Shown: positions 1 to 31,356, counted from the stretch's first letter. The stretch: DNA of 31,356 bases from Saprospirales bacterium (GCA_031414895.1 JANOQP010001022.1:1-31356); one strand, 5' to 3'. Made by a program: numbers and translations. The notes: generated by a model from the sequence alone, not told the origin.

Positions 1-3000
1 ATATTGGTCGGTCAAAACGTCGAAGTCATCGACCTCATCGGGGAGTTCCGGGCGGCAACGAACTTTTTTTCTCAAAAAATAAAACCCGGCGAGGCTGCCG
101 CGCTGCCATTTGAAAACCTCTTTGCCGAGATTTTTCACCGCTATCATTTATTGAACAAAAAGGGCGACGGACTGCTCGTGCTGCTCGTCGATGAATTTGG
201 AAAACTGCTCGAATGGGCGGCAAGGCACAGCCCCGAACAGGAGCTTTATTTTCTCCAGCAACTCGCCGAATTCATCGGCAACCCTGCCCACCGCATCCTG
301 CTCGTCACCGCGCTGCACCAAAATTTTGAGGCATACGCGAACGCACTCAATCAGCCGCAGCGACAGGAATGGGCGAAAGTAAAAGGCCGTTTTCGGGAAA
401 TCCCGTTCAACGAACCGGTCGAGCAACTGCTCTTTTTGGCCGCCGAAAGTTTGGCGCAAAAGCCGCTTTGGGAGGTTCAGCTTTCAAAAGAAGCAGCCAA
501 GGTTTTCGCTGAAAAATGCAGAGCGTCCGCGAAGCTATTTGCCGAAAGCGGTGCTTTCCCCACCAAAGAACCAAGCGAACTTGCCGAAAAACTGTTCCCG
601 CTCGACCTCTTTTCGGCCTCTTGCCTGACCCTCGCATTGCAGAAATACGGGCAAAACGAGCGGTCGCTTTTTTCCTTTTTGGAGGGCGAAGACAACACCG
701 GCATCCGCCAATTTGACCGCCGCGACAACCTTTTTTTCAACCTCGCCAATGTCCACGACTATCTAGCCTTCAATTTTGGCGCATGGCTTTCTTCGCCGCA
801 AAACACCGACCGCTTGACCTGGGCCGCTATCCGAAGCTCGCTCGAACGCATCGAAAACGAAATTGCCCCCGAACAACAGGCCGACTGCCGGAAGCTCGTC
901 AAAACAGTCGGAATGCTACAACTTTTCGCGGCGGGTGGCTCAAAATTGGGGGTCGATTTTTTGCTGGAATACGATGAACTATGTTTATCAGTTGATAAAG
1001 CGGGCCAAGCCATTGCCCTGCTCGAACGCTACAAAATCTTCCTTTTCAGGAAATACGCCAACCGTTTCGTACTTTTTGAGGGTACCGACGTGGACATCGA
1101 CCGCGAGCTTTTGACCGCAGCTGACCGGGTCGAGGACATCAGCGATATGGCGACGCTGCTCAACCGGAGCTTTCATTTTGAGCCGGTTTTTACGAAAGAA
1201 CATTTTTTCAAAACCGGTACGCCGCGCGTTTTTGATTTCAAAATCGCATCGCTTCCGCAAAAACCGCTCGTCCCGACGGGCGATATCGACGGCTTTGTAC
1301 AGCTCCTTTTCAATGACCAATTGACCGAAAAGGCAGTCGCCGAAGTTTCTTTGGAACAAAAAGAGGCCGTTTTGTACGGCTTTTTCAAAAACTCAAAAGT
1401 CATCCGGCAGCAGCTTTTTGAAATAGAACGGACAAAAAAAGCCATCGAGCATGTACCGTCAGAGGACAAAGTGGCGCGGCGCGAACTGTCCAGCATCCAA
1501 AAACACCACGAAAATTTGCTCGCCCATTTCATCTACGGCAACCTGTTTGAGCCAAAAAGCGAGGTCGTCTGGTTTTTTCAGGGCCGACGGATTCAGCTCG
1601 AAAGCCATCGGGCGTTCAATGCGCTGCTCTCCGAAATCTGCCGCGCCATCTATCCCGACGCGCCCGTTTTCAAGAACGAACTGGTCAACCGGACGAAGCT
1701 TTCTTCTCAAATCCACACGGCGCGGCGGGCTTTTTTAAAGAACATGGTTGGCGCATGGTTGTCGCCCGAAATGGGTTTCGAGGGCGAAAAATTCCCACCC
1801 GAAAAGACGATTTATTTGTCGCTTTTGAAAGAAAACGGCCTTCGGCCTGACCCTCAAAATTTGGCGGCCTTGCCAAAAATTACTGCCGAAAGCTCGTTCC
1901 GACCGCTCTGGGATTTTTGCGGAAACTTTTTGGCGGAATCAAAAACGGGCCGCCGCCGCCTCTCGGAACTGACCGACGCGCTCGCCCGGCGACCGTTCAA
2001 ACTCAAACAGGGGCTGATTGATTTTTGGCTTCCGACCTTTCTTTTTTTGAAAAAAGACGAGTTTGCGCTGTTCGGCACGGCGGGATACATCCCTACAATC
2101 TCGGACGATTCGCTCGAACTGGTCATCAAAACCCCATCTGATTTTGAGGTTAAAGCCTTCGACATCGCAGGCATCCGGTTAGAAGTTTTTCAGGCATATC
2201 GCCGTTTTTTGAGCCAAAGCGAGGCGGAAAGGCCGGGCAACGAGACTTTCATCGAGACCATCAAGCCATTTTTGAGCTTTTATCGCGGCCTGCCCGACTA
2301 CGCACGGAACACCAAACGGCTGCAAAAAGAAAGCCTCGCCGTCCGCGAGGCAATCGCCAAATCGAAGGACCCGGAAAAGACTTTTTTTGAGGACCTGCCC
2401 GCCGCGCTCGGCTGTTCACTCGCCGACCTGAAAAGGTCGCCCGAAGCGGTCGAGGCTTTTTCGGAGCGTTTGCAAGAGGCCGTGCGGGAGATTCGGGCGT
2501 GCTTTGGGGCTTTGGTCGGGCGGTTTGAAGCGTTCGTTCAAGAGGCTGTTTTTTATGAAAACCTCACTTTTGTAGAATGCCAAAACCGGTTCCGCGAACG
2601 GTTTGGCGGCATCCCGCAACACCGGCTCTTGCCACATCACAAAACACTTTTGCAGCGCGTATTTTCGGAGCTTGACGACCGCGAGGCATGGTTCGGCTCG
2701 GTCGCGCAAGCGGTCGCGGGCAAGCCGTTGCACCAATTCCGGGACGACGACGAGCCGCTGCTTTTTGACCGATTGAAACAATGGGTGATGGAACTCGACA
2801 ACCTCGCGCTGCTGGCCAATTCAGGTGCGAACGAAGAAAAAGAGGAAGTTTTTGGTCTCGAAATCACATCCTTCGAGGACATCGAGAAAAAAATAGTTCG
2901 GTTCCCAAAGAAGAAAAAAGCGGAAATTGGCCGCATCGAAAACCAATTGCGCAAACATTTGGTCGACGACAAAACGCTGAACATTGCGGCATTGGCGGGC

Positions 3001-3027
3001 GTTTTGAAAGAGCTTTTGAAAAAATAA
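1..3027 (+). CDS. sspC: SspC/BrxC-like large ATP-binding protein of an Ssp-type phosphorothioation system (5' end outside window)
   Basis: Frame is open from base 1 to TAA at 3025-3027. Walker B-like LVLLVDEFGKLLEWAA, followed by LHQNFEAY, WAKVKGRF and ALQKYGQNERSLFSFL, blocks I recognise from the ATPase that precedes PAPS-reductase genes in Ssp/BREX-4 loci. Walker A is not in the window. A PAPS-reductase gene lies about 950 bp downstream on the same strand. Confidence 0.72.
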   Translation: MLVGQNVEVIDLIGEFRAATNFFSQKIKPGEAAALPFENLFAEIFHRYHLLNKKGDGLLVLLVDEFGKLLEWAARHSPEQELYFLQQLAEFIGNPAHRILLVTALHQNFEAYANALNQPQRQEWAKVKGRFREIPFNEPVEQLLFLAAESLAQKPLWEVQLSKEAAKVFAEKCRASAKLFAESGAFPTKEPSELAEKLFPLDLFSASCLTLALQKYGQNERSLFSFLEGEDNTGIRQFDRRDNLFFNLANVHDYLAFNFGAWLSSPQNTDRLTWAAIRSSLERIENEIAPEQQADCRKLVKTVGMLQLFAAGGSKLGVDFLLEYDELCLSVDKAGQAIALLERYKIFLFRKYANRFVLFEGTDVDIDRELLTAADRVEDISDMATLLNRSFHFEPVFTKEHFFKTGTPRVFDFKIASLPQKPLVPTGDIDGFVQLLFNDQLTEKAVAEVSLEQKEAVLYGFFKNSKVIRQQLFEIERTKKAIEHVPSEDKVARRELSSIQKHHENLLAHFIYGNLFEPKSEVVWFFQGRRIQLESHRAFNALLSEICRAIYPDAPVFKNELVNRTKLSSQIHTARRAFLKNMVGAWLSPEMGFEGEKFPPEKTIYLSLLKENGLRPDPQNLAALPKITAESSFRPLWDFCGNFLAESKTGRRRLSELTDALARRPFKLKQGLIDFWLPTFLFLKKDEFALFGTAGYIPTISDDSLELVIKTPSDFEVKAFDIAGIRLEVFQAYRRFLSQSEAERPGNETFIETIKPFLSFYRGLPDYARNTKRLQKESLAVREAIAKSKDPEKTFFEDLPAALGCSLADLKRSPEAVEAFSERLQEAVREIRACFGALVGRFEAFVQEAVFYENLTFVECQNRFRERFGGIPQHRLLPHHKTLLQRVFSELDDREAWFGSVAQAVAGKPLHQFRDDDEPLLFDRLKQWVMELDNLALLANSGANEEKEEVFGLEITSFEDIEKKIVRFPKKKKAEIGRIENQLRKHLVDDKTLNIAALAGVLKELLKK

Positions 3028-3061
3028 AGGCACTACCTTTGACAAAAAAACAGCAAAAAGT

Positions 3062-3640
3062 ATGACCACGATATTCAACGCGCCGCTCCGTTCGATTGAC
3101 GACCGTAAAATCCGGCAGTTGCGCACCCGCTATCCGGAAGCCCGGCTTCGGCTCGAAATCGAGCAAATCGAGCCGTTGGGCGAGGCCGAATTTTGGTCGG
3201 TCGTCGGGCAGTTGGACTGGGGCCGGAAAGGCAACGAGGACATCGCCGCGCCCGCAATTGCGGCATTGGCCCAGTTTTCCGAAACAGATATCGAGCGGTT
3301 CGACGACCTGTTGGCGGCCAAACTTTTTGCGCTTGACGGCGAACGATTTGCCGCGGGGCTGTTGAAAAATGGAGGTTTTTCGACTGATGTCTTTTTGTAT
3401 GCGCGGTGCTGTGCGGTGGCAAATGGCCCGGATTTTTATGCTAAAACATTGAACGACCCGTCGTTTTTCCCTGTCGGCAGGACTTTTGAACCGCTTCTTT
3501 ATGTCGCCGAAAAGGCGCACCGGCTGAAAACGGGGCGCGACGATTACGACCATTTGACGGCCATCCACTACGAGACATTCAGCAACCAAGCCGGTTGGCC
3601 CGGTCGGTCTTCGTTGCAGGAGCTGCTTGAAGGCGCGTGA
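3062..3640 (+). CDS. DUF4240 domain protein with a short N-terminal extension (possible antitoxin/immunity protein)
   Basis: 192 aa. EAEFWSVV...IERFDDLL...FSTDVFLYARCCAVANGPDFY...FEPLLYVAEKA...YETFSNQAGW matches the DUF4240 pattern as I recall it. Confidence 0.7.
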   Translation: MTTIFNAPLRSIDDRKIRQLRTRYPEARLRLEIEQIEPLGEAEFWSVVGQLDWGRKGNEDIAAPAIAALAQFSETDIERFDDLLAAKLFALDGERFAAGLLKNGGFSTDVFLYARCCAVANGPDFYAKTLNDPSFFPVGRTFEPLLYVAEKAHRLKTGRDDYDHLTAIHYETFSNQAGWPGRSSLQELLEGA

Positions 3641-3642
3641 AA

Positions 3643-3969
3643 ATGAGGCAGCACGGCAATTCCCACGACAATCTGGAGCCGCACCATTTGTACGAAATAC
3701 ACGACGGCGAGCGGGGCGACGTGTACAAATTTGGTATCAGCGGCGAACCGCTTTTCGCGGACGGCTCTTCGCCGCGGGCCAACCGGCAGACACGCGCGTT
3801 CAACCGGCTCGTGGGCGGGCTGCGTTTTTTTGCGAACGTGCTTTTGACCGGCATCGCAGGCCGAAAACTGGCCGAAGAACTGGAAGAAAAGGCCGCCTGC
3901 GATTACGAAACCGAACATGGAAACCGGCCGAGGGGCAACCCGCCCAAATCGGCTATGCCACCTCAATAA
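3643..3969 (+). CDS. Small stand-alone URI/GIY-YIG-fold nuclease (Tox-URI2-like)
   Basis: 108 aa from ATG 3643 (alternative GTG 3637 overlaps the DUF4240 stop). HGNS...HHLYEI...VYKFGIS...R...Q...E..E...HGNRPRGN fits the two-tyrosine, Arg, Glu and terminal Asn layout of URI-fold nucleases. Confidence 0.6.
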   Translation: MRQHGNSHDNLEPHHLYEIHDGERGDVYKFGISGEPLFADGSSPRANRQTRAFNRLVGGLRFFANVLLTGIAGRKLAEELEEKAACDYETEHGNRPRGNPPKSAMPPQ

Positions 3970-3979
3970 TGCATTTTTT

Positions 3980-5089
3980 ATGAAAATCAGGCACGTTCTG
4001 GGCATTTCCGGCGGCAAGGACAGCGCGGCACTTGCCATTTATTTGAAGCAAAAATATCCGTCGCTCGACCTCGAATATTATACCTGCGACACGGGGAAGG
4101 AGTTGGACGAGACGTATCGGTTGATTGAGCGGTTAGAGGGCTTTTTGGACAAAAAAATTATTGCGCTCAAAGCTGCACCCAATAGCCACGAAGCACCGTT
4201 CGACCACTTTTTAAATAAAAAAGGAGGTTATTTGCCTTCATCAATGATTCGATGGTGTACAAAGGCTTTGAAGTTAGAGCCCTTTGAACAATGGGTCGGT
4301 AATTCGCCTGTTGTTTCCTATGTCGGTATTCGCGGCGATGAAGACCGGGAAGGCTACATTTCAACGAAACCGAACATCCAATCCATTTTCCCTTTTCGGA
4401 GGAATATTTGGAGCGAGGATGTCATCGCCAAAGTGCTTGCAAACGAGGCTCGCGAACAAATGTTGGACTTGACGGGCGGCGGCATCCTTGAAAAAACGAC
4501 CGCCCGATTTCTGGAAATTTTAGGCCGACCTGTTGCACTGGATTTTATGCGTGCGCAAAAATTGGATATGCTGCTCGACCTGAACACCAAGGGTTTCAAT
4601 CGTCTGGTTTTTGCCTTTTTAAAAAATACGGCATATCCGCTCGCCCACGAAACGGCTTTTCCTTTGATTGAAAACGACGGGTCTATGGGCATTGAGGACA
4701 TTTTCAAACTGCTGCGCGAAAGCGGAATCGGCGTGCCAGCCTATTACGAAAAGTTGCCGCTCGAGGCAAACGGGCAAAAAGGGCATTATTCGAGAAGCCG
4801 GTCGGGCTGTTATTTCTGTTTTTTTCAACAACGGATTGAATGGGTCTGGCTCTACGAACAACATCCAGCCCTGTTCAAAAAGGCAATGGAGTATGAAAAG
4901 GACGGATATGCATGGAGTCCCAAAGAGAGCCTTGTCGAACTGATCCGCCCGGAGCGGATTGCCCAAATCAAGCTGGAATATTTGGAGAAAGAGGCGGGCC
5001 GGGCCATTGTCAAAACAAAGAATTCACCTTATTTGATTGATAGAATTCAAGAGGAAGAGGAAGAGGGGTGTTTGGCCTGTTTCATGTAA
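3980..5089 (+). CDS. sspD: SspD/BrxP-like phosphoadenosine phosphosulfate (PAPS) reductase family protein
   Basis: 369 aa from ATG 3980. PP-loop LGISGGKDSAAL, YYTCDTGKE, RWCTKALKLEPF, YVGIRGDE, RSRSGCYFCFFQ and a C-terminal CLAC cysteine cluster. Same strand and operon as the sspC-like gene. Confidence 0.8.
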   Translation: MKIRHVLGISGGKDSAALAIYLKQKYPSLDLEYYTCDTGKELDETYRLIERLEGFLDKKIIALKAAPNSHEAPFDHFLNKKGGYLPSSMIRWCTKALKLEPFEQWVGNSPVVSYVGIRGDEDREGYISTKPNIQSIFPFRRNIWSEDVIAKVLANEAREQMLDLTGGGILEKTTARFLEILGRPVALDFMRAQKLDMLLDLNTKGFNRLVFAFLKNTAYPLAHETAFPLIENDGSMGIEDIFKLLRESGIGVPAYYEKLPLEANGQKGHYSRSRSGCYFCFFQQRIEWVWLYEQHPALFKKAMEYEKDGYAWSPKESLVELIRPERIAQIKLEYLEKEAGRAIVKTKNSPYLIDRIQEEEEEGCLACFM

Positions 5090-5101
5090 AAATTGCCAAT
5101 T

Positions 5102-5600
5102 ATGGAATCAAATCGGAACGCGCTGGTTCAACAAATAGAGTCGCTCAACCGGGAATTGGATGAAGTCGATAAGGACAAAATCCGGTTTTCGATTGATGCT
5201 GGTCTGATTGACCGGCTTGGCCGCGAATTGGTCGGTAAACAGGAAACCGCCGTTTCGGAGCTTGTCAAAAACGCATACGATGCCGACGCGACCGAGGTGA
5301 TTATCACGTTTTCCAACTCGGATACGAAAGGCGGTACGCTCACCATCGATGACAACGGGCGTGGGATGGACATGGATTCGCTGCGAAACGGTTTCATGCG
5401 GATTTCTTCCACCGATAAAGTACACAGCCCCGTTTCACCAAAATTCAACCGGAAACGGGCGGGCCGAAAAGGGATTGGCCGATTCGCAACCCATCGACTG
5501 GGGGAAAAACTGACCATCACGACGCAGACAAAAGAAGGGGACAAGGCCCTTCAACTCACGATAAACTGGGAAGACTACGCGATTGACCGTGAGCTCGAGT
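5102..5600 (+). pseudogene. N-terminal fragment of a GHKL (HATPase_c_3/MORC-like) ATPase
   Basis: ELVKNAYDADA (N box), IDDNGRGM (G1) and AGRKGIGRFA (G2) are present. Similarity ends at about INWEDYAIDRELE (~165 aa), then the frame reads through unrelated sequence. The end coordinate is approximate. Confidence 0.7.
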
Positions 5601-5656
5601 GGATTCAGCTTTTGCCCAAAATCTTTTTGACTGGAAACAATGTTAAAAGCAAGGCC

Positions 5657-6558
5657 ATGCACTTCACCACCCAACCCATCCTCCGCGACTTTGACCACTT
5701 CCTCGACCTCCTCGGCCAATCCGAAAACCTCGAACTGACCCGCGACCGCGACCACCTGCGCCAAGCTGACCTCCAAAAACTCAACGAGTCGCTTGAATTT
5801 CCGGCCCGCCTATTTGGCGTGAAAAGTCAACAACCTTCCTTCGCGGTCATCAATGCCTTCTATTATATCGCCCGCGCCGCCCAGTTTTTATCGGTTAGAA
5901 AAAGCATGGGGGCAAAGCAATTGCCCGCCATCGCACTCAACAAGGACCGCATCCGCCAATACGATGCGCTGACCGCCGATGAAAAATACTTCTTCCTCCT
6001 CGAAAGCCTTTGGTGCTTCATGGACTGGGACGTAGCGTTCGACGTGCGGAGTTTTTGGGACCAAAAATTTTACCTTGAACTCGCCGCGCACCCTGTCGGC
6101 AAGATGGTTGCCGTCGCCGACCGGGACCTGAAACGCGCCGGGAAAATAAATGCCCCATCGCAAACCGCTTTTGCCGAAATATTCCAATCGTTCGGTTTCC
6201 TCGATTTGGTTTGGGATGAAAAACTGGAAAAAAAGCCAACCCGGTACCAGTTCCCATACCATTCGGCGGCGATTACCGCGGTTGGGAAAATATGGACGGG
6301 ACAAAGCATTCCATCAGCGGTGAAAAATACTTTGATACACGCTTTGAGGAACACGATGGCGGCCTGCCCGCCCATATCTTCCGGCTCGGCGAGTTGGGAC
6401 TGCACGTCGGCAAGGAGTTCCTGTACCTGTTCGATTTTGGGGCGGGCTGGGAGTTCACCCTACTGGTTTTGGAAATCGAGCCGGGCGCGGCGATGGGCAA
6501 AAAATTCAAGTTGCTTCGGTCTGTTGGGAAGGCGCCGAGGCAGTATGAAGATTGGTGA
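5657..6558 (+). pseudogene. pRiA4b ORF-3-like protein with internal deletion/frameshift
   Basis: Own ATG at 5657 (MHFTTQPILRDF...). The C-terminal module MDGTKHS...RLGELGLHVGKEFLYLFDFGAGWEF...GKAPRQYEDW (6292-6558) is in a different frame and matches the pRiA4b ORF-3 C-terminal motif LYLFDFGxxW...P.QY. The first half of that domain is absent. Confidence 0.6.
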
Positions 6559-6603
6559 TTGAGCGTAGAACGTGTATCATTCATTGGCCGAGCTAAATTT
6601 ATC

Positions 6604-6638
6604 CATGTAAATCCACCATCTAAAAATGGATTTACATG
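6604..6638. promoter_or_regulatory. Perfect 12-bp inverted repeat upstream of the AAA-DUF4143 gene (operator or hairpin)
   Basis: CATGTAAATCCA (6604-6615), an 11-bp spacer, then TGGATTTACATG (6627-6638), ending 21 bp before ATG 6660. Confidence 0.5.
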
Positions 6639-6659
6639 ATTGAAGCCTAATTTCGCGGC

Positions 6660-7820
6660 ATGATAGACCGCTCCGCCGCCGACCAAATCCTAAATAACCT
6701 CACCGTCTTCCCTGCCGCCAACATCATCGGCCCTCGGCAGGTGGGCAAGACGACGCTGGCAAAATGGCTCCAGACCCGATTGCCTAAACCGTCCATTTAC
6801 CTCGATTTGCAGGACGAGCAGGATTTTGACCGGCTCGCCTCTCCGACACTTTTCCTTCGGGAACAGGAAGGCAAATGCGTTATCATAGACGAGACGCAAC
6901 GGATGCCCGCGCTTTACGGCCATTTGCGGTCGCTCATCGATGTTCGGCGCGACCCGGCGCGGTTCATTTTGCTCGGTTCGGCATCGCCATCCATTATCAA
7001 GGGGGTCTCGGAATCACTCGCGGGCCGCGTTTTTTTTACCGAATTGATGCCCTTTTCGCTCCTCGAAGTTCAATCGATGTCAACTTGGCAGACCCATTGG
7101 CTGCGCGGCGGCTTTCCGGGCGCACTCATGATGCCCGATGACAGCTTTGCGGGGGAATGGTTCGATTCGTTCATCCGGACCTTCGTGGAGCGTGACCTGC
7201 GGGAACTCGGCTATAACCTCCCTGCCCCGATGTTTTCAAGGTTGTTGCGGATGGTCGCGCACCTGAACGGCCAATTGCTCAACGTTGCGGGTCTATCCAA
7301 CTCGCTCGACAGCAGCGCAAGCTCGATTTCCCGTTACCTCGATTTGCTGGAAGGCGGTTTTTTGATAAACAGGCTACTGCCCTACTTTGTCAATCTGGGC
7401 AAGCGATTGGTCAAAGCACCCAAGATCTATGTCCGCGACAGCGGCATCCTGCACCGTCTCCTTCGTATCCAAAACTACGATGAACTGTCGGGCCACCCCG
7501 CCATCGGCTCATCGTGGGAGGGCTATGTCATCGAGCAAATCATGCGGGTGACGCACCGAAAATGGGAATACTATTTCTACCGGACACAACAGGGCGCGGA
7601 AGTTGACCTCGTCCTTATCAACCCCTCGGGCAAGCTATTTTGTATAGAAATCAAGTTTTCCGCCGCCCCTGTTTTGAGTCGCGGTTTTCATCAAAGCATC
7701 GAAGATTTGGCCCCTGCCGCAAGTTTCGTGATTGTCCCAACGGGCGAATCGTACCCAAAAGAACGGGGTATCAGGGTCATTGCTCTGCTCGATTTTTTAC
7801 AAAACGAATTGGGCGATTGA
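6660..7820 (+). CDS. AAA_14 ATPase with C-terminal DUF4143 (PD-(D/E)xK-like) domain
   Basis: 386 aa. Walker A IIGPRQVGKTT, Walker B VIIDETQ, FILLGSAS, ESLAGR, RGGFPG, KRLVKAPKIYVRDSG and EVDLVL...IEIKFS. Confidence 0.88.
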   Translation: MIDRSAADQILNNLTVFPAANIIGPRQVGKTTLAKWLQTRLPKPSIYLDLQDEQDFDRLASPTLFLREQEGKCVIIDETQRMPALYGHLRSLIDVRRDPARFILLGSASPSIIKGVSESLAGRVFFTELMPFSLLEVQSMSTWQTHWLRGGFPGALMMPDDSFAGEWFDSFIRTFVERDLRELGYNLPAPMFSRLLRMVAHLNGQLLNVAGLSNSLDSSASSISRYLDLLEGGFLINRLLPYFVNLGKRLVKAPKIYVRDSGILHRLLRIQNYDELSGHPAIGSSWEGYVIEQIMRVTHRKWEYYFYRTQQGAEVDLVLINPSGKLFCIEIKFSAAPVLSRGFHQSIEDLAPAASFVIVPTGESYPKERGIRVIALLDFLQNELGD

Positions 7821-7826
7821 TCAAAG

Positions 7827-8309
7827 TCACTGCTCCCCCACCAGCTCCAAAACCCAAAATTCCCCTTCAAAAAACATAGGCTCGGCTCGAATCTTTGAGT
7901 CGATAATATCAAAACCGCCGTGCGCGTATTCTTCCAAAAGCCTTTTCAAACTGGTCAGTTCTTTTTCCGCATCGCTGTCTTCGAGGTCTTCGAGCAGGTT
8001 CAGGTCGACGCCTTTGTCGCGGGCGAGCAGGGACATAAGTATGAATTGGCGCAGTTCCGGCGGCTGCCACGCGTTGATTTCAATAAAACCTTTGGTCTCC
8101 AAGCCTTCGACCGGTAGCCGGTAATCGCGCAGCAGGCCAAGCATCGCGGCGTACATGTAAAGCTCATATACATTGGAAAAAACCTTGCCCGTCCGGTTTT
8201 TCAGTTCGTCATCGCCACCACCGACGAGCGCGAACCGGTCGATGATGCCCTCCCGGTATTTCACTGGATATTCTGGCTTTCGGGTCTCGAAGCGTTTGAT
8301 GAAGTCCAT
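7827..8309 (-). CDS. DndE-like / dnd-associated protein 4-like small protein (PbeD-like)
   Basis: 160 aa from ATG 8309. FSNVYELYMYAAMLGL...FILMSLLA...LLEEYAHGGFDII matches the phosphorothioation-associated small protein pattern. It starts 10 bp after the SMC gene stop. Confidence 0.55.
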   Translation of the reverse strand: MDFIKRFETRKPEYPVKYREGIIDRFALVGGGDDELKNRTGKVFSNVYELYMYAAMLGLLRDYRLPVEGLETKGFIEINAWQPPELRQFILMSLLARDKGVDLNLLEDLEDSDAEKELTSLKRLLEEYAHGGFDIIDSKIRAEPMFFEGEFWVLELVGEQ

Positions 8310-8319
8310 AAAAAGGGGG

Positions 8320-10517
8320 TTATCGGATTTTGAAGATGCGGGTTTCCAGTTCCTGTCGGCTCTCCCGCTCCTCGAAAGGCACGGAGGCCTCGATTCGGTA
8401 GACATGGCCCATATTTTCCGGTGAGATTTGGGCGAGCAGCCGTTCGAGCAGCGCATCGTTCCCGGTGAACTCCTTGCTCGTGCAAATGCTCTGCGTATAG
8501 ACCGCGCTCGCCGTTCGGTAAAAGCCGAGCGCGTAGTTTTCCGAAAACTTGGAGGTTGCCGCGTCCGTGATGAGCGGATAAAGCTCCGCCGCCGGGCCGC
8601 CCCGTTTGGCCGAGATGATGGCCATGATGACGGCGATTTTTATCAAAATCAGGTTCGAGTCGTTGATGCTTGTCAGTTCGCGGCCCTCGGAGTCGAGGTT
8701 GCGGGGCATGAAATTGCCGTTCGGCTGCATTTCCAGTTTGATGCGACCGCGCACGGCCCGGTTTTCCTCGGTCATGGCCGCAAAATGGCGGTTCGCCTCC
8801 GCTTCCAGCCTTTCTATCAGTCGGTTGAAAACCCGGTCGCGCGTGCGCTCTGCAACAGCTTTAAAATCCCGGAGCACGTCCACCTTTTCCTCCAAAACAG
8901 GCGATATCTTTCCCGAGCTCAAATTTTTGAGCTGCTCCTCTTTTTCGCGCATCCGCTCCCACAGTCGTTGCATCTCGGTCTCGATTCGGCTTTTTTCGGT
9001 CGAATATTTTTTCACCGCTTCTTCTTGGCTCCTGAATTCCACAATCAGGCTCTTCGCGCCATCGACCGCCAAATCACCGCCGCCGCCAAGCAGCGACGTG
9101 AGGCCCTGCTCGACAGTAGCGATTTCGGAAAGGCTGTTTTTTCGCCTGTTTTCCGCGTCGGCGATTTCCAGGAAACCGTTGGCAATCCCCTCGTCGGCCC
9201 GTGCGGTGCGGCCTTTCATCGAAAACCCATTTTGGAAAAGCATTTTGAAATCCGCCTCAAAATCCTGTTTGAATATCCGTTTTTCACCTTTCGGCGGTGC
9301 GAACGACTTGTGCGCCCGATCGAGCAGCTCCTTGATTTTTTCAAAAGCCTCTGAACCTTTGGGCGCGGGACGGTCGCAAAAACCTTGCAATGTTCATCCT
9401 TGAGCATGCCCTCGATATAGGGCGGTTCCGGTACGCCCGGTGGCAACAGGAACTCGCGGGAAATTTTTGCCAAAACCTGTTTCTGCAGCTCTGCGGATTT
9501 TTCAAGCTCCATCCGTTTTGATTGATAGGCTTGAAATTTTTCGGCAAAAAGGTCGGTCAGGAAACCTGCGTCCTTCGCCAGCCAATTTTTGTAAAAAAGC
9601 CCTTTTTGCAGCCCGGCGGTCGTTGTTTTCAGCTCATCGTTGGCCTTCCGGAGGCCATCGTTGGCGGTCGTCCGGCGATGGTCGAGCTTGCTTATTTTGT
9701 CCGCATCCTCCAGCCGGGCGAGCTGTTCAAGCCGTTTTTCATTGGCAAATACCCAATTATCGGTCGCTTCCTTCAGCTCTTTTTCGAACCGTTCGAGCTT
9801 CCCCAAAAGTTCTGCGCGCCCGGTCTCAAGCTCCTCGTTCTTCTTTTTGTCGGTCGATGTGCGGTTTCGCTCGCGCCGCAGTTCCTGTTCCGCCGCTTCG
9901 AGGGCGAGCCGAGCGGTTTTCCTGAAAAAATCGAACTCGCTGATATCCGACAGCACGTTGATGGCCCGCGTCAGGGTGTCGTTCTTGTTGAAATCGATGA
10001 GGCTGTTCACCTGTTCTCCCTGAAACCACATGTATGGCTTCACGTCGGGCGGCAGGATCTTGGCTAATGTCCTATCATGGTCGACCAAGTTGAGCGGCCT
10101 CGAATTTTGGTTAGCATCCTTAAAAACGATGGAAAACTGGCTGCCCGCCGGCTCCTGCCATGCCGTCCCATCAACTGTTTTTCGGATTTCATAGCTGCGC
10201 GTCAGGATGTACGCCTCCCGTTTTTCAGAATCGGCAACGGTCATTTCGACCTCCGTTCGGACGGTTTCGCCCGGCTCGCAACGGGCTTTTTCCCGGTCGG
10301 AAACGAGGTTGCCTTTGACCTCCGCCGTTTTGCGGAACTGTGTGCTGTTCGAGTCAAAAACGGCATCGTTCAACGTCCACAAAAACGCATCGTACAATTT
10401 CGACTTGCCCGTATTGTTGTCGCCGATGACGAGGTTCATCCCGGGGCCGAACTCAAAAACATTGTTTTCGCCAGAATAGCATTGAAAATTGCTCAACCGG
10501 ATGGATTGGATATGCAT
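8320..10517 (-). pseudogene. SMC/Rad50-like (DndD/PbeC-like) ABC ATPase, frameshifted at the zinc hook
   Basis: N-terminal half: IRLSNFQCYSG, Walker A GDNNTGKSKL, WFQGEQV, coiled coil. C-terminal half (8320-9390): coiled coil and Walker B-like PLITDAA. The junction reads CAT TGC AAG GTT TT TGC GAC CGT. Removing 2 T from the T5 run (A5 at 9378-9382) restores HCKVCDRP (CxxC hook) and a single 731-aa ORF. Confidence 0.8.
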
Positions 10518-10526
10518 GGCGAGGGG

Positions 10527-10742
10527 TTATTTGGTGGATAAAAACTTGTTGAGCCGCCGCGCCGCCGATTCTTCGGTCTCGTCCTCCTTTTTGGACAAAA
10601 TGGCCTGTTTCAATGCTTCGACAAACTTGCTTTCCGTCTTGTCGATGAATTGCAGCCCTTCGACGGCCTCCGGGCTGATATGACCTTTATCCCCGACCAA
10701 CGGGTCGCGGAGGAATTCTTTGAGCAGTTCTTCTTTTGTCAT
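10527..10742 (-). CDS. Small 71-aa protein between helicase and SMC ATPase (PbeB-like position)
   Basis: MTKEELLKEFLRDPLV...AARRLNKFLSTK. Its ATG overlaps the helicase TGA (ATGA) and its stop is 9 bp from the SMC start. Confidence 0.65.
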   Translation of the reverse strand: MTKEELLKEFLRDPLVGDKGHISPEAVEGLQFIDKTESKFVEALKQAILSKKEDETEESAARRLNKFLSTK

Positions 10743-12844
10743 GTTGCGGCAAGGGTTTGGTGTATTTCGTGCAGGTTCAAATGATAATGGTCGCAAATAT
10801 CTTGCAACGCCCGCAAAGATTCATGCCTATTTATCGCCATAAACGCAAAGTGGGCGACCCGTTCAAGTTCTTTCCGAACAAGGTTGCGCTCCATCAGAAA
10901 GACCCCTTCGTCAAGCCCATCGAGCGGCGGCACGACCACCAAATCGTGGATTTCAGCGAGGTGCTTTTCGGGATGTTTTCGCAAAACGCGCCCGCGCCGT
11001 TGGATGAACTGCCGCGGGTTGCCCGTGCTCGAACAGAAAATGGCAAGCTCCGCCCGCGGCACGTCGATTCCCTCGTCGAGGCATTTCATGGAAGCCAAAA
11101 CATGGATTTCACCCTTTTGAAATTGCTCCAAAATCTGGTCGCGGTCGGGCGTGATGCCAGTAAAACGGTTCACCCGAACGGAAGAATGAATCGTGCCGAT
11201 GGCCTGCGTGTATTGGTCGATAATGCGCAAGTCGGCCTCGCCTTCGGTCAAAAAATCTTCGTTTTCGGGCGAAAAGCCCTCCGGCACATAGACAAAGGTG
11301 AATTTTAGGTGGCCCAGTTCATTCCATTTTTTTTGCAAAATCTGTCGCGTTCGGTCGAGCTTGTTGGCCGCTTTTTGGATGATGCGCTTTCGAGCCAAAA
11401 GCAATTTTTCCGTCAAATCGGGCCGCCGCGATTCGCCCGTTTTTCCATCGAAATATCGGGCGAGCTTTTTTGAGATCTCGGAGTATTCCGACATTTCAGC
11501 GGGCAAAAGCTCAACGAGGTGCGGGAAATAACGGTACCTGCAAAGCGCGCCCGATTCGATGGCGCGCTCCATCGGCAGCGAAAAAACGAACGGTTCGCGG
11601 TCGCCAAAAAATGCCTCCATCGCCGCCGTGCCTTCGGGGTCGTAACTCCGGCGGGGCGTCGCCGAAAGGCCGATGCGATTTTTCAAATGCACATTTGGTA
11701 AAACAGCTTGCACGCGCGGGGAGGCCAGATTATGGCCCTCATCGGCGATAAAAAGCGTCTCTCCGGGCAGTTTTTTGAAAAAATACTGGAATCGCTCGCG
11801 ATAGAAAGAGGCATAGGTCACAATCAAAATGAACGACCGTTCTCCGCCACCAAAACGAATGGAGGCGAGCAGCCGGTCAAGTTCACGCTCCCAATCGGTC
11901 TTTGATGAAATTTTCAGGATGCCCGAAAAACGGAACGCCTCGGCCTCTTTTTCCCATTGCTCGACGAGCGAAACCGTCGGCGCGAGGATGACCGCCTGAA
12001 AAATGCCGCCCCGTTTTTGCGATTCCAAAAGCAGACAGTTGAGGGCAGTGATGGTCTTGCCCGTCCCGGTCGCCATGGCAAAAATGCCGCGCTGGCCATT
12101 TTCGAGCCAGTTTTCGTATGCCTGTTTTTGATAATCGCGCGCCCCTTCGACAAAGGGGAAGCGGGGTTTCTGTAACCAAGCTTCCACTTTTCGGCGAGTC
12201 CGTTCGAGCGCCTCGCGGATATGTTTTTGTTGAAAATGCCGGGCCGTTTCTTCCAAAAGCTGCGATTCGTCGGCCAAAAGCTCGTCCATCGTTCTTCCCC
12301 CGAAATGTTCCGCGATGGATGTTTCTATTTTTTCAAAAGGCAGGTATTCCACGAATTCCGCCTGTTTCAAGAAGATTTTTTCAAAATAACCCCGCTGTTC
12401 AGAAATTGCGCCGCCCTCCCCTGCCCCACCCCATGAGCACCGGACAGAGAGTTCTTCGAGGTTTTCCAAAAATCCGCTTGCCGTGAAATTGCACGACGAC
12501 TTGAACGCGACCTCATCTTCCCCGTCCGAAAAAATTCCTGATTTATAATGGGAAATACCACGCCCGGTTTTTGGCCGAACAACAACGATTTCGAGCAGCT
12601 GCGACGCTATAAGCCATGCGAGGCACTCAAAGAAATGGCGGCCCGTGCCGTCGAGCCGCCGCTTTAGGTCGTCAAAATTGATGGCCGTGGTATCTAACGT
12701 CCCTTCCTCCGACCGTTCTCCAACGAGTAACGCCGTTTTGTCCTTTTCCGAAAGGATATGGTTGATGACCATCCGCACTCGCCCACCGCCACTCAAAAAC
12801 CGGGCAAAACCGAGCGACGTTGGTATTGATATTTCGGAGAGCAT
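10739..12844 (-). CDS. PLD-like nuclease + SF2 helicase (type III Res-like; phosphorothioation-associated restriction enzyme / PbeA-like), possibly 5'-truncated
   Basis: 701 aa. PLD-like ISHYKSGIFSD...FKSSCNFT. SF2 motifs MATGTGKT, FIADEGHNL, GLSATP, CLDEGIDVP and QFIQRRGRVLR. Confidence 0.8.
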   Translation of the reverse strand: MLSEISIPTSLGFARFLSGGGRVRMVINHILSEKDKTALLVGERSEEGTLDTTAINFDDLKRRLDGTGRHFFECLAWLIASQLLEIVVVRPKTGRGISHYKSGIFSDGEDEVAFKSSCNFTASGFLENLEELSVRCSWGGAGEGGAISEQRGYFEKIFLKQAEFVEYLPFEKIETSIAEHFGGRTMDELLADESQLLEETARHFQQKHIREALERTRRKVEAWLQKPRFPFVEGARDYQKQAYENWLENGQRGIFAMATGTGKTITALNCLLLESQKRGGIFQAVILAPTVSLVEQWEKEAEAFRFSGILKISSKTDWERELDRLLASIRFGGGERSFILIVTYASFYRERFQYFFKKLPGETLFIADEGHNLASPRVQAVLPNVHLKNRIGLSATPRRSYDPEGTAAMEAFFGDREPFVFSLPMERAIESGALCRYRYFPHLVELLPAEMSEYSEISKKLARYFDGKTGESRRPDLTEKLLLARKRIIQKAANKLDRTRQILQKKWNELGHLKFTFVYVPEGFSPENEDFLTEGEADLRIIDQYTQAIGTIHSSVRVNRFTGITPDRDQILEQFQKGEIHVLASMKCLDEGIDVPRAELAIFCSSTGNPRQFIQRRGRVLRKHPEKHLAEIHDLVVVPPLDGLDEGVFLMERNLVRKELERVAHFAFMAINRHESLRALQDICDHYHLNLHEIHQTLAAT

Positions 12845-12918
12845 TCGATTCAGATGTTCAATCTTATTTTTATTTTTGCTGGCACAAACAAGTCAATAAA
12901 CAATTTTTTGCCAGTTAT

Positions 12919-13254
12919 ATGCCAATTATTTGCCCGATTTGCGAAACCGAGTTCACAGGCCGCAGTAACAAAAAATTCTGCACCGAACGATGCCGTTCCT
13001 TGCACAACACCCGGCTTTACTTGGGGCGAAATTCAACATTTTTCGACCAAGAAAGGCTGCGCCGCCAAAATGCAAAAGCCCTGAAAAGCATCCATGTCGT
13101 TATTGGCGATGCCGCATTTGGCCACGATATCTTAAAACGGGTAGGTTTTCAATATCAAGTGACTACTTTTTCACCCGAAACCTTTTCGTTGGACTTTGGC
13201 AATTACCGCCTTGTCCGCCTCGAAAAAGACAAATTTGTTGTTCAAAAAACCTGA
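12919..13254 (+). CDS. Small Zn-ribbon protein (CxxC...GR..KKFC...CR), common Bacteroidota hypothetical
   Basis: 111 aa from ATG 12919: MPIICPICETEFTGRSNKKFCTERCRSLHN. Confidence 0.65.
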   Translation: MPIICPICETEFTGRSNKKFCTERCRSLHNTRLYLGRNSTFFDQERLRRQNAKALKSIHVVIGDAAFGHDILKRVGFQYQVTTFSPETFSLDFGNYRLVRLEKDKFVVQKT

Positions 13255-13257
13255 TTT

Positions 13258-13491
13258 ATGGAAAGCTCATCAATCTCCAAGTTTATAGGCGGCCGCATCA
13301 ACAGCGAAAGAAAAGGCCTTTTGCGCCTCTTGCTTGCCGTCATCGTAATTTTTTCCGCCATCCTTTTGCGTCTCTTCTATTTGCACAAAAAAGAAAAACA
13401 GGACAACCAAGAGCGAGCCGACCAAGCCCTACTCCGGGCAGCACATTTGGAGGTCAAGTTGGGGCTGCTCCGCCCGCAAGGCCCGAAGTAG
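13258..13491 (+). CDS. Small single-pass membrane hypothetical protein
   Basis: 77 aa, starting 3 bp after the previous stop. Hydrophobic stretch LLRLLLAVIVIFSAILLRLFYL. Confidence 0.45.
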   Translation: MESSSISKFIGGRINSERKGLLRLLLAVIVIFSAILLRLFYLHKKEKQDNQERADQALLRAAHLEVKLGLLRPQGPK

Positions 13492-13588
13492 GAACAATCC
13501 GAAAATTTGAAGACGCACCGCCATTGGGTGTTGTGCTAATTTTTAGTGCCCTTCCCGACTTCTGCGAAAATGTTTTTTGCTCATTTTT

Positions 13589-13632
13589 TACTTAAAAATA
13601 AGTAACTGTGTATTTTTAAGTAAATATAAGTA
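13589..13632. repeat. TACTTA/TAAGTA repeat cluster 1 (parS/operator-like) upstream of parA
   Basis: TACTTA at 13589; TAAGTA at 13599, 13617 and 13627. Confidence 0.6.
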
Positions 13633-13638
13633 CGTTTG
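13631..13638 (+). promoter_or_regulatory. Bacteroidota -7 promoter box for parA
   Basis: TACGTTTG matches the TAnnTTTG consensus, lies 38 bp before ATG 13677 and overlaps a TAAGTA repeat. No clear -33 box was found. Confidence 0.45.
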
Positions 13639-13676
13639 TCCGCACATTTGCCATTAGCGGCAAACCCGTTTTTTTC

Positions 13677-14348
13677 ATGATTATATCAGTGATGAACCTC
13701 AAGGGCGGTGTCGGTAAAAGCACCGTCACCCAAAATTTGGCCGTGTGGTTTGCACATGCCGGAAAAAAAGTCTGCATTGGCGACACCGACAACGAGCAAC
13801 AGACCTCCATGAAATGGGCAGGGCAGCGCGATGACGACCGTCCCAAAATCCCAGTTTTCGGGGTCACTACCGCCAAATCAAAATCTGCTTTCACTACCGA
13901 TAACGGCAAGGCGCTTGTCGCCAATATCAAGGCGCTGCACAACGATTACGATGTGGTATTGCTTGATGGAACGCCCATTTTGAGCGAACTGGCGACTTGG
14001 ATGATATTGGCCTCGGACATTGTCATCTGCCCCATCGAGCCGAGCCCGGCGGATATATGGTCGCTGCAGAACGTGCGCGAACGGTTCGAACAGGTGCGGT
14101 CACTGGGGACGGAAATCCCTGCATATATCCTTCTCAATAAACACAATTTTAGCCGCAACCTTGACCGGGAAATCGAGGCCAATTTGGCACAGTTCGGGAT
14201 GCCCGTGCTGAAGTCCCGGCTCACCTATCGCGTTTCGTACAAAGAGGCTATGATTGAAGGCGTCGGTGTTTTTGAGTACCGCGACCCGAAGGCAAAAGAG
14301 GAAATAAGGAGACTGGCTGAGGAAATACAGCTTTTGGTTGCAAAGTAA
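13677..14348 (+). CDS. parA: ParA family partition ATPase (short, type Ib-like)
   Basis: 223 aa. Deviant Walker A NLKGGVGKST, IGDTDNEQQTS, YDVVLLDGTP, SDIVICPIEPS and RVSYKEA. Confidence 0.92.
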   Translation: MIISVMNLKGGVGKSTVTQNLAVWFAHAGKKVCIGDTDNEQQTSMKWAGQRDDDRPKIPVFGVTTAKSKSAFTTDNGKALVANIKALHNDYDVVLLDGTPILSELATWMILASDIVICPIEPSPADIWSLQNVRERFEQVRSLGTEIPAYILLNKHNFSRNLDREIEANLAQFGMPVLKSRLTYRVSYKEAMIEGVGVFEYRDPKAKEEIRRLAEEIQLLVAK

Positions 14349-16574: not shown

Positions 16575-18116
16575 ATGGACGCCAACCTTCAAAATACTTT
16601 GCCTGCTTTTGTCCCGACCCGCACCTTTGAACCGGAGCGCGAGCGGCATTTGGCCGTCAAGTCGAACGCGCTCATGGAGGCCAAGTTTTCCTTCAACCTG
16701 TGGCAGCTCCGTATCTTTGATGTCATGGTCAGCATGGTCAACAAGAACGAGCCGGACTTCAAGATGTGCCGGATATACCTGAAGCACCTGCTCAAATTTT
16801 TTAACTCGAACGATTCGAACGATTACGACGCGGTGCGCCGAGCGGTCGTCGGGCTTGCATCCAAAAAGGTCGTCGTGCCTTACAACGATGCCGACTCGGG
16901 CGAAAAACGCTGGAAACTGCTCTCCGTCTTCCCGACTGCGACCATCCCCGACAGCACCGACCGCGACCAACGGAACAACTATGTCGAACTGCAATTCCAT
17001 CAGGACGTGAAGCCGTACCTGCTCGAACTGCGCGAGCGATTCAAAATGTACGATATCCGCAACCTATGCAATGTGCGGTCGACCTATGCTATAAAAATGT
17101 TTTGGCTGCTCAAGGAATACGACAATTTGGGGCGCCGCGAAATCGGCCTCGACGAGCTCAAAGACCTCCTCAATACCGACGATGACAGCCTTCAACTCAT
17201 CGGGACGCGCCGCGCTTCGGCCCCAAAAAAGAAGACGACGTACAAACTTTATGGTGATTTCAAGAAGCGCGTTTTGTTGAAATCGCAGGAAGATTTGGCA
17301 CGGCACTGCGATATCGCGTTCACTTTTGAGGAGAAAAAACTGGGAAACCGGGTGCACAGCCTCGTTTTCCATATTCGTCGGAACACGCCTAACAAGACCT
17401 ACCAAGACCTTCCGCAGGTGGAAGAAGTCTCCGCCGAGGTGCTTGAATCGAGGCGGACGAACCCCGGCTTAAGACAAAAACCGGAGGCAAAAAAGACAAC
17501 AAAATCAGCCGATCAGCCGACTTCTCCACTTTTTGAAAAATTCAAAACGGTGGTCGTGGAAAAATTTGGCGTTTCGCCACAAACCTTTTCCGAACTGCTC
17601 GAAGGGCGGTCGGAAACGCAGGTCAACCAAGCCATTCGCATTACGCAGCGGGCAAAAGTGAATGGGCAGATAGGGCGAAGCGTGGCCGGTTTTTTTGTCG
17701 AAGCGTTGCGCAGCGGTTTCACGGACGCAAAAGAAGAAACTGCCAAAAAACAGGCCGCCGAAGCGCAGCGACAAGCCGAGCGAGCCAAAGTATTGGCCGA
17801 ACTGGAAAACCTGCGAGACGAACAGGCACAAAGGTTCAACGACAGGATTCGTGACCTGACGACCGAAAACCCGGGCGTGACCGAGGAGGCCATTCGTTTA
17901 ATCAAAGAAAGCCCGGTGACGCGCGGCATCATCGAGGAAAAGCAACAAGCGCTCGGCCGGCCGCTCGAAATCGAGGATTTTCGGCAGGATCGGATGCTGC
18001 GCGAGTTCACGAAAGGGAAGATTTTTGAGCTGCACCGGGAGCGGTTCGAGGATGTATTGGCGGAGTTTGAGCCGAGGTTGGTGGAATGCGAGGCGCAATT
18101 GAGGAAATTGACGTGA
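16575..18116 (+). CDS. Rep_3 family plasmid replication initiator with C-terminal extension
   Basis: 513 aa. VKSNALMEAKFSFNLWQLRIFDVM, YVELQFHQDVKPYLLELRERF, STYAIKMFWLLKEY, YGDFKKRVLLKSQEDL and FEEKKLGNRVHSLVF. An iteron array lies upstream. Confidence 0.9.
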   Translation: MDANLQNTLPAFVPTRTFEPERERHLAVKSNALMEAKFSFNLWQLRIFDVMVSMVNKNEPDFKMCRIYLKHLLKFFNSNDSNDYDAVRRAVVGLASKKVVVPYNDADSGEKRWKLLSVFPTATIPDSTDRDQRNNYVELQFHQDVKPYLLELRERFKMYDIRNLCNVRSTYAIKMFWLLKEYDNLGRREIGLDELKDLLNTDDDSLQLIGTRRASAPKKKTTYKLYGDFKKRVLLKSQEDLARHCDIAFTFEEKKLGNRVHSLVFHIRRNTPNKTYQDLPQVEEVSAEVLESRRTNPGLRQKPEAKKTTKSADQPTSPLFEKFKTVVVEKFGVSPQTFSELLEGRSETQVNQAIRITQRAKVNGQIGRSVAGFFVEALRSGFTDAKEETAKKQAAEAQRQAERAKVLAELENLRDEQAQRFNDRIRDLTTENPGVTEEAIRLIKESPVTRGIIEEKQQALGRPLEIEDFRQDRMLREFTKGKIFELHRERFEDVLAEFEPRLVECEAQLRKLT

Positions 18117-18794: not shown

Positions 18795-18831
18795 AAAGAA
18801 CCTTTTTTACCGCACCAAATTTTACTCAAAA

Positions 18832-19386: not shown

Positions 19387-19439
19387 CCTCACTATTCTTA
19401 AAACCGGATACACCGCTCATTTTTTAAACCTTTAACAAC

Positions 19440-20081: not shown

Positions 20082-20096
20082 AATCAACCTTTCCCA

Positions 20097-22296: not shown

Positions 22297-22352
22297 TTTT
22301 TTCGGACAAAACCATTTTGCCCAAAACGCACATCAAGAAAAACATCAAAACC

Positions 22353-22991: not shown

Positions 22992-23028
22992 AACTTTTTT
23001 TTTGAAAACAACCTAAACCCGTTTTCCC

Positions 23029-24087: not shown

Positions 24088-24119
24088 TTTTTTATTAACC
24101 AAAAGAACAGCAACCCAAA

Positions 24120-25778: not shown

Positions 25779-25797
25779 AAAACGAACCAGTTTGTTT

Positions 25798-27300: not shown

Positions 27301-27351
27301 CCCAACCGGTTGCCGGTCGGTATTGCTTTACGCTCACAAAACTGAACCAAC

Positions 27352-31298: not shown

Positions 31299-31356
31299 AC
31301 TTGCGAAGTTTGGTAAAGCGGCGAACGGCCGAACGGGCAGCGGTCGGGCAGTTGGG

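Follow-up and report, generated by a model that had tools for sequence, protein, structure and literature searches.

The locus described here raises the question of whether a single-strand phosphorothioate (PT) writer of the Ssp type is paired with a restriction cassette of the Pbe type, and whether such a pair is still able to restrict DNA. The stretch analysed, referred to as the window, is 31,356 nucleotides long and comes from a Saprospirales bacterium (GCA_031414895.1, JANOQP010001022.1:1-31356). It is an entire contig (C1022), the longest among the 1032 contigs of a 5.0-Mb assembly with a completeness rating of 92%. Profile scans with PADLOC, Pfam and NCBIfam were run over the ten large open reading frames (ORFs) of positions 1-12844, where sspC and sspD on the plus strand face a pbeABCD cassette on the minus strand. 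We consider it fairly probable (about 70%) that this locus is a composite PT defence island in which an intact writer has been kept and restriction has been lost, located on a plasmid-like contig of an assembly that also has a chromosomal DndCDE writer. On a broader scale, the chances are somewhat better than even that SspBCD-PbeABCD is a distinct and widespread type of PT defence, in which the Pbe reader/effector would have exchanged the double-strand Dnd writer for the single-strand Ssp writer as its partner.

We collected the 80 best loci encoding relatives of the window's PbeA, one genome per species, at 39-63% identity; nearly all of them were from Bacteroidota, and the closest PbeA relatives were found in Saprospiraceae-type metagenome-assembled genomes (MAGs). 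When these loci were searched with the window proteins (tblastn, E ≤ 1e-5), SspD was matched in 63, SspC in 57 and SspB in 38 of them, and the N-terminal half of PbeC, its C-terminal half and PbeD were matched in 69, 59 and 53, respectively. DndC was matched in three loci, two being true Psychroflexus Dnd loci and the third a cross-match on an SspD. The sspBCD and pbeABCD genes were collinear on one strand in 44 loci and converged as in the window in 19; two loci were Dnd-linked, another two had no writer in full 10-kb flanks, and the flanks of the other 13 were too short to tell. The median gap between the SspD and PbeA matches was 175 nucleotides in the collinear and 4076 nucleotides in the convergent layout, and the near-zero spacing of the 44 collinear loci suggests that the Ssp and Pbe genes form one transcription unit there. 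The two writer-less loci are L027 and L053, the latter being a near-twin of the Ssp-linked locus L059.

A second sample comprised 400 other genomes of the phylum, searched for PbeA at E ≤ 1e-80, SspD at E ≤ 1e-40 and DndC at E ≤ 1e-60. PbeA was found in 7 genomes, SspD in 15 and DndC in 16, and SspD and DndC occurred together in none of the 400. In five of the seven PbeA genomes SspD was located on the same contig within about 5 kb, and in the other two DndC was located 9-11 kb away; the sampled genomes are kin, the five Ssp-Pbe genomes representing four genera and three families, and the figures are given as counts with no statistical test. In addition, the identities to the window proteins co-varied between the two modules (Spearman 0.75 for PbeA and SspD, n=60, and 0.68 for PbeA and SspC, n=48), and this was no weaker than for PbeA and its own operon partners (0.51 and 0.57), with shared ancestry of the hosts contributing to all such figures. 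These results support the conclusion that Ssp genes and Pbe cassette belong together as a conserved pair that recurs, and that their juxtaposition is not due to chance. An earlier annotation made from the sequence alone (the first-pass annotation) had suggested that Ssp modification is paired here with a Pbe-type effector, and at the level of linkage both samples agree with it.

Linkage could also arise if Ssp and Pbe were functionally independent modules that travel together in defence islands, with the cassette of the CxC ABC ATPase type serving as a stand-alone effector. According to the section of PMC10853773 on these cassettes, they occur without Dnd genes in numerous taxa, and their PT-dependent role in restriction has been questioned; moreover, the cassettes of L027 and L053 have no writer within 10 kb, and variable accessory cassettes are placed between the two modules in the convergent layout. 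However, 63 of the 67 loci with informative flanks were Ssp-linked, the 44 collinear loci showed the close spacing mentioned above, and a PT writer was present within 11 kb of PbeA in all seven PbeA genomes of the phylum sample, compared with overall frequencies of 15/400 for SspD and 16/400 for DndC. The archaeal cassette described in PMC6459918 also requires PT. Functional independence of the two modules therefore appears unlikely.

The first-pass annotation had described the minus-strand genes as a coupled operon encoding a phospholipase D (PLD) plus superfamily 2 (SF2) helicase protein, a 71-residue protein, an SMC/Rad50 ATPase with a CxxC hook and a DndE-like protein. All four genes were recovered, but the ATPase is spread over two frames and is not a single ORF, and the N-terminus of PbeA is short. 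The possibility that the operon would lack matches to Pbe- or Dnd-associated hidden Markov models was not borne out. The pbeA gene (10739..12844) encodes a PLD/HKD nuclease joined to an SF2 helicase and matched PDLC02706 with 908 bits, beginning at profile position 41, as well as the Pfam families ResIII and Helicase_C; its score against TIGR04095 was 415 bits, below the cut-off of 600. The start codon of pbeB (10527..10742), the gene for the 71-residue protein, overlaps the pbeA stop by four nucleotides (ATGA). PbeB had no family match in the PADLOC, Pfam and NCBIfam scans, and tblastn detected its homologues at the same position in 11 of the 80 loci. The N-terminal half of pbeC (9216..10517) encodes an ABC/SMC-type ATPase head and coiled coil, for which the best PbeC model was PDLC02741 (82 bits), with 47 bits for TIGR03185 (DndD). 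The C-terminal half lies in another frame (8320..9390), where residues 380-730 of the PbeC from the relative L020 align to positions 9378-8323 in frame -3. Finally, pbeD (7827..8309) encodes the predicted DndE-fold partner of the ATPase and scored 36 bits against TIGR04062 (cut-off 74) and 18 bits against PDLC02758.

PbeD is 61% identical to the PbeD of L020. Its AlphaFold2 model (predicted local distance difference test score, pLDDT, 89.5) was compared exhaustively with 48,161 chains, and the top two matches were DndE structures, 7x4e_A (Z 8.2, root mean square deviation 3.5, 112 residues aligned) and 5wtu_A (Z 7.3). A chain of the F-plasmid relaxosome ranked third (Z 6.4), and the matches from rank 4 onward were unrelated (Z ≤ 3.9). 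Foldseek alone returned nothing for this model at E ≤ 0.001 and reached the DndE structure 4lrv only at E 1.7. The modelled fold supports the label "DndE-like", which the first-pass annotation had already applied to this protein.

The Pbe copy of the window looks decayed. In the alignment to L020 the reading frame of PbeC changes within five consecutive T (about 9378-9382) that separate the two cysteines of the CxxC zinc hook: the relatives have C-x-V-C-D-R at this site, and the window gives E-H-C-K-V-F before the change and C-D-R-P after it, in the next frame. All 57 relatives having both halves encode PbeC as a single ORF of about 722-732 residues, a mid-protein CxxC is found in 56 of these 57, and no T run longer than three is present in the relatives at the hook site. 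Per-run contigs from three runs span the frame change with identical sequence and 0 gaps, and an artefact of the MAG assembler is therefore a less likely cause of it.

The second lesion concerns PbeA, which has 701 residues (the median of 71 relatives is 755) and is short of about 41-43 conserved residues near the N-terminus. In the BLAST alignment residue 3 of the window protein corresponds to residue 45 of L020, MAFFT placed a 41-column gap after residue 8 in an alignment of 72 sequences, and all five PADLOC PbeA profiles match the window only from position 41-50 on. The unstranded non-coding spacer between pbeA and parA (12845..13676) showed no trace of the missing codons in a three-frame translation, and an ORF within it (12990-13595) had no family match. 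In the AlphaFold2 model of the N-terminal domain of L020 PbeA (pLDDT 79.9) the missing part comprises a strand (residues 12-14), a helix (21-30) and another strand (34-39). The best structural matches of this domain were nucleases of the PLD family, namely SauUSI (E 1.3e-7), NgoAVII, Zucchini, NucT and BfiI. Judged from the model, the window's PbeA is missing the first beta-alpha-beta unit of the nuclease fold, and we infer that the shortened nuclease domain is inactive.

The third lesion lies between the two modules. In the relatives L020, L021, L026, L033 and L066 a three-gene cassette is present, consisting of a gene for a double-HATPase protein of 728-780 residues and of genes for proteins of about 380 and 245 residues, the latter two having no family match. 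The window has instead a plus-strand GHKL ATPase ORF (5093..6562; PF13589, 82 bits) that is homologous to the relatives only over about the first 225 residues (to about 5722), and tblastn with the GHKL proteins of L020 and L026 ends at 5605 and 5722 in the window. The window's GHKL protein was matched in 11 of the 80 loci. The tail of this ORF (5723-6562, 279 residues) had no Pfam or PADLOC match, no match in the 400 phylum genomes (E ≤ 1e-5) and no usable Atlas match; a weak PRiA4_ORF3 match (23.8 bits, below the cut-off) was seen in another frame at 6292-6558. The tail is followed on the plus strand by a gene for an AAA_14/DUF4143 ATPase (6660..7820), a member of the PADLOC candidate family PDC-S01 (PDLC04790, 290 bits; PF13635 and PF13173), whose stop is 6 nucleotides from the converging stop of pbeD. 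This gene was found by tblastn in 0 of the 80 PbeA-relative loci and is a local insertion. As read from these alignments, the accessory GHKL cassette has shrunk to a stub: homology to the relatives is limited to about 225 residues, beyond which come the unrelated tail and the AAA_14 gene. A chimeric assembly was considered and rejected for both the GHKL breakpoint (about 5722) and the 5' end of pbeA (12844), as contigs of other runs bridge both sites. An insertion sequence element or long repeats at the breakpoints were likewise rejected, as a repeat search of positions 1-14000 found only short imperfect repeats.

Between sspD and the Pbe operon the three-gene GHKL cassette occupies positions 15049-19082 of L020, 14981-19237 of L026, 9136-13253 of L033 and 5839-9834 of L066. 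Other accessory pairs stand beside the Ssp-Pbe core elsewhere (L025, 5660-7794; L019, 15117-17202; L028, 15062-16802), combining either a GmrSD_N (DUF262, NsnA-like) protein and a Ser/Thr protein kinase or proteins of the DndB-like and GIY-YIG types.

Because the Pbe arm of the window carries these lesions, it probably restricts nothing at present. The cassette could still be functional if the frame change of PbeC were bypassed, either through slippage at the five T or because the site acts as an on/off phase switch, and if the shortened PbeA were active. The break does fall in a homopolymer run, the 356 PbeC codons downstream of it are open and 50% identical to L020, so that the change would be recent or tolerated, and the HKD and helicase motifs of PbeA are retained. 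However, five T in a row are few for phase variation or transcriptional slippage, and no length variant was seen in the contigs of four runs. A split PbeC was found in 0 of the 57 relatives, which also lack a T run longer than three at the site, and the presence of three distinct lesions in the same arm is more readily explained by decay than by regulation. Although archaeal pbeA is described in PMC6459918 as only partly required, we consider a functional cassette quite unlikely, and decay of the effector arm is the explanation that we prefer.

On the writer side, the first-pass annotation had reported sspC-like and sspD-like genes on the plus strand, and both identifications held. The window carries the 3' 93% of sspC (1..3027), which encodes the BrxC-like ATPase of the Ssp writer and is cut at its 5' end by the contig end (PDLC02776, 1182 bits, profile positions 70-1038 of 1039). 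The sspD gene encodes a PAPS-reductase-like ATP pyrophosphatase that matched PDLC02782 with 296 bits and PF01507 (PAPS_reduct) with 26.5 bits, above the cut-off of 22.5 bits, and is 65% identical to the SspD of L020. Its ORF spans 3917..5089, and the internal ATG at 3980 is the likely start, because SspD of the relatives begins at the equivalent of residue 22 of the window ORF. The suggestion that sspB could lie upstream of the window was borne out as well: sspB (DUF4007) was found on the abutting contig C902 (L014) at 6018-6890 (PF13182, 229 bits; PDLC02760, 309 bits). The gene order on C902 is a TPR-CHAT gene, sspB, and then the first ~70 sspC codons running to the contig end, where positions 6913-7125 correspond to SspC profile positions 1-71, including the Walker A motif GSYGTGKS. 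We infer that the writer reads sspB-sspC-[DUF4240]-sspD and that a contig break divides it into a C902 part and a window part; in two other runs, per-run contigs reach 596 and 2802 nucleotides past the window's first base. The TPR-CHAT protein has 917 residues and is encoded at 3196-5949 of C902, immediately upstream of sspB.

No cysteine desulfurase gene adjoins the Ssp genes. Ten Aminotran_5 (PF00266) matches were found elsewhere in the assembly, the best with 305 bits, and supply of the desulfurase in trans has been documented for sspBCD in PMC8092258. When the ten ORFs of 1-12844 and the six ORFs of C902 were compared with the PADLOC models, none matched SspE, SspF, SspG or SspH. One GmrSD_N (DUF262) protein is encoded on contig C510, away from sspBCD.

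The first-pass annotation had allowed that pglZ might lie upstream and that the left-hand genes might belong to an ordinary BREX (bacteriophage exclusion) type 4 system (BrxP, BrxC, PglZ, BrxL). BREX type 4 does have parts homologous to Ssp, as a section of PMC12839542 sets out, and in the window SspC also matched the BrxC model PDLC02478 (250 bits) and SspD weakly matched BrxP (27 bits). However, the Ssp models scored far higher (1182 versus 250 bits and 296 versus 27 bits), and the genes upstream on C902 proved to be a separate DUF4007 gene, sspB, directly before sspC and preceded by TPR-CHAT, with no pglZ or brxL adjoining. The only PglZ match of the assembly was a Response_reg+PglZ protein on C633, a contig of 3.7 kb. 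A BREX type 4 origin of these genes can hardly be credited, and we treat them as the Ssp writer.

The DUF4240 gene (3062..3640, plus strand; PF14024, 71 bits) lies between sspC and sspD. It was detected by tblastn in 0 of the 80 PbeA-relative loci and by this measure stands outside the conserved system. The genes named in the first-pass annotation were thus all present, but it had passed over this gene, which splits sspC from sspD, and also the GHKL and AAA_14/DUF4143 genes standing between sspD and pbeD.

Family membership suggests how an intact pair might operate. SspB, SspC and SspD, together with a housekeeping cysteine desulfurase, would give resident DNA its single-strand PT marks; where the cassette is intact, PbeC and PbeD would scan DNA, PbeA would act on unmarked DNA, and PbeB would be an essential small subunit. 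In the archaeal Dnd-linked cassette pbeB, pbeC and pbeD were each indispensable and pbeA partly so, Pbe without PT was neither toxic nor protective, and a PT-modified virus escaped (PMC6459918). As archaeal pbeC is indispensable and Pbe without PT is non-toxic, a frame-broken pbeC should abolish defence without harm to the cell. If Pbe without PT and PT without Pbe are both harmless, the effector arm could decay with the writer being kept, and a harmless broken effector would let the Pbe arm decay while the writer persists.

Several points weigh against the view that an intact writer has been kept here and restriction lost. PbeA retains an HKD-type motif and all helicase motifs, which speaks against lost restriction, and both PT modification and restriction at this locus are predictions from family membership. 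Rakesh et al. state in the relevant section of PMC10853773 that the CxC-type cassette often acts independently of PT writers and that it does cleave DNA; linkage need not mean dependence, because these authors argue for PT-independent action. The 80 loci are the nearest relatives of the window's PbeA and not a random sample. The three runs that reproduce the PbeC frame change are from one freshwater-sediment study, with a depth of 5-8, and may be the source samples of the assembly; moreover, contigs drop minority variants, so that an in-frame PbeC subpopulation may exist. The integrity of the writer depends on a putative join, because the ends of C902 and the window conflict: window bases 1-24 are the exact reverse complement of C902 7096-7119, forming a 24-nucleotide inverted repeat common to both ends, and over the ~10 homologous SspC positions that the end of C902 and the start of the window both cover, the encoded residues differ. 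Possible sources of this conflict are a fold-back artefact of the assembly, a genuine insertion that forms a hairpin, and an inversion. Finally, DndC, DndD and DndE are all present in the same assembly.

DndC (403 bits, above the cut-off) is encoded at the end of contig C288 (L015, 6935-8077), beside the genes for aspartyl-tRNA synthetase and MetK, and contig C257 (L016, 250-6002) encodes DndD (377 bits) and DndE fused to a HerA/FtsK-like ATPase. The Pbe cassette could therefore work with the DndCDE writer of the assembly, following the pattern of the classical DndCDEA-PbeABCD system, and the Ssp genes would then be neighbours without relation to it. It is in keeping with this possibility that two of the seven PbeA genomes of the phylum sample were Dnd-linked and that the sole tested Pbe system was Dnd-linked as well (PMC6459918, in the part concerned). 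However, the Dnd genes of the assembly are on contigs other than the window's; the writer adjoining the Pbe cassette is Ssp, and no dndCDEA adjoins it. In a maximum-likelihood tree of PbeA with 72 rows, from which nine loci with ORFs shorter than 650 residues were left out, the window was placed in a clade supported by a Shimodaira-Hasegawa-like approximate likelihood ratio test (SH-aLRT) value of 100 together with five Ssp-convergent loci and one writer-less locus, and the Dnd-linked rows (L023, L024) fell in a distant clade. Among eight relatives of the bacterium's own family DndC was found in two and PbeA or SspD in none, so the family has DndC without PbeA, and PbeC is frame-broken regardless of which writer it would serve. 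A partnership of this cassette with Dnd thus seems very unlikely. The presence of Dnd genes elsewhere in the host, which the first-pass annotation had named as grounds for abandoning an Ssp-Pbe pair, was confirmed, but it does not overturn that pairing, because the window's PbeA nests in an Ssp-linked clade. The distribution of DndC, PbeA and SspD within the family is consistent with the Dnd system being resident and the Ssp-Pbe element being imported. The DndD and DndE fusion genes on C257 are followed by a gene for a ParB_N protein and then one for a DUF6602/PD-DExK-like protein.

The DndCDEA-PbeABCD system known from Haloterrigena jeotgali A29 (Xiong et al. 2019, PMC6459918) has the same four-gene order of a nuclease-helicase, a ~70-residue protein, a coiled-coil ABC ATPase and a small DndE-like protein, beside a PT writer. 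In contrast to that system, the writer in the window is SspBCD and not DndCDEA, PbeC and PbeD are weak on the PADLOC Pbe models, PbeC is frame-broken and PbeA is shortened. The CxC ABC ATPase-DndE systems (Rakesh, Aravind and Krishnan 2024, PMC10853773) resemble the window in having an HKD nuclease-SF2 helicase, a fast-evolving small protein, a zinc-hook ABC ATPase and a DndE cognate. They reportedly stand alone in some cases and accompany Dnd or methylases in others; the section of that paper devoted to them does not describe a linkage to SspBCD, and the hook in the loci studied here is C-x-x-C in 56 of the 57 relatives. BREX type 4 has homologous ATPase and PAPS-reductase parts and PT chemistry (sections of PMC12914056 and PMC12839542), whereas the window has no PglZ or BrxL alongside, and SspB and SspD are separate genes. 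The ATP-dependent restriction endonuclease SauUSI (PDB 7clg), the best Foldseek match of the PbeA-type N-terminal domain, also has a PLD nuclease followed by a helicase. Its identity to PbeA is 12%, and SauUSI is a single-chain enzyme, whereas PbeA belongs to a four-gene cassette. The same writer module reportedly forms part of the SspABCD-SspE system of Xiong 2020. It is also found in SspBCD-SspFGH (SspB with DUF4007, SspC and SspD; Wang et al. 2021, PMC8092258, relevant part), again with the desulfurase supplied in trans. Unlike in both of these systems, the partner in the window is neither SspE nor SspFGH.

The relevant section of Wang et al. (2021) reports that 2,211 of 2,678 sspBCD modules were without SspE or SspFGH and asks which other partners exist (PMC8092258), and the corresponding part of Xiong et al. 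(2019) reports 233 of 553 PbeAC homologues (42%) near dndCD and 165 solitary ones (PMC6459918). Both gaps would be partly closed by a conserved pairing of Ssp with Pbe. If true, Ssp-Pbe would be found in at least a third of the SspD-bearing genomes of the sampled phylum (5/15), and it may account for some of the sspBCD modules that were reported to have no known restriction partner (84%) and for some of the PbeAC homologues that were called solitary in 2019, before Ssp was described. Yuan et al. (2026) dealt with gut sspBCD isolates having a CpsC dinucleotide, and the text contains neither "pbe" nor "helicase" (PMC12914056); similarly, neither "CxC" nor "pbe" occurs in the text of the 2026 BREX survey (PMC12839542). 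Our literature search found no paper naming the Ssp-Pbe pairing, with "Ssp-Pbe" and "SspABCD-PbeABCD" occurring in 0 papers, the search covering texts other than supplementary tables, which possibly list such loci; this agrees with the remark in the first-pass annotation that the combination was not recognised as characterised. The pairing also bears on the disputed point of whether the Pbe/CxC cassette reads phosphorothioate, as the cassette would have to work with single-strand marks made by unrelated machinery. The window would then illustrate the natural decay of such a pair, in which a plasmid-like element retains a presumably intact writer next to a broken effector; a Dnd writer is also present in the assembly, a combination found in 0 of the 400 other genomes of the phylum sample.

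The remainder of contig C1022 is plasmid-like and encodes ParA (13677), a Bro-N protein, a Rep3-type initiator (16575-18116) and a TerD/VWA/TerY/PP2C/kinase/TerC cluster. The best PLSDB matches of the Rep protein were replication initiators from Haliscomenobacter, Runella and Saprospira plasmids (26-31% identity). The tetranucleotide composition of the window is not set apart from that of the bin (r = 0.979, rank 80 among 140 contigs of at least 8 kb), and C257 is more atypical in this respect (0.896). A minus-strand ORF of 484 residues without a Pfam match occupies positions 29901-31355 and is open at the contig end. The Ter-type cluster, which shares the contig with the Rep3 and ParA genes, is complete and extends over 18240-28134; it encodes three TerD proteins, three VWA proteins (one with TerY_C), an HAD hydrolase, a ComF-like phosphoribosyltransferase, a PP2C phosphatase, a protein kinase and TerC.

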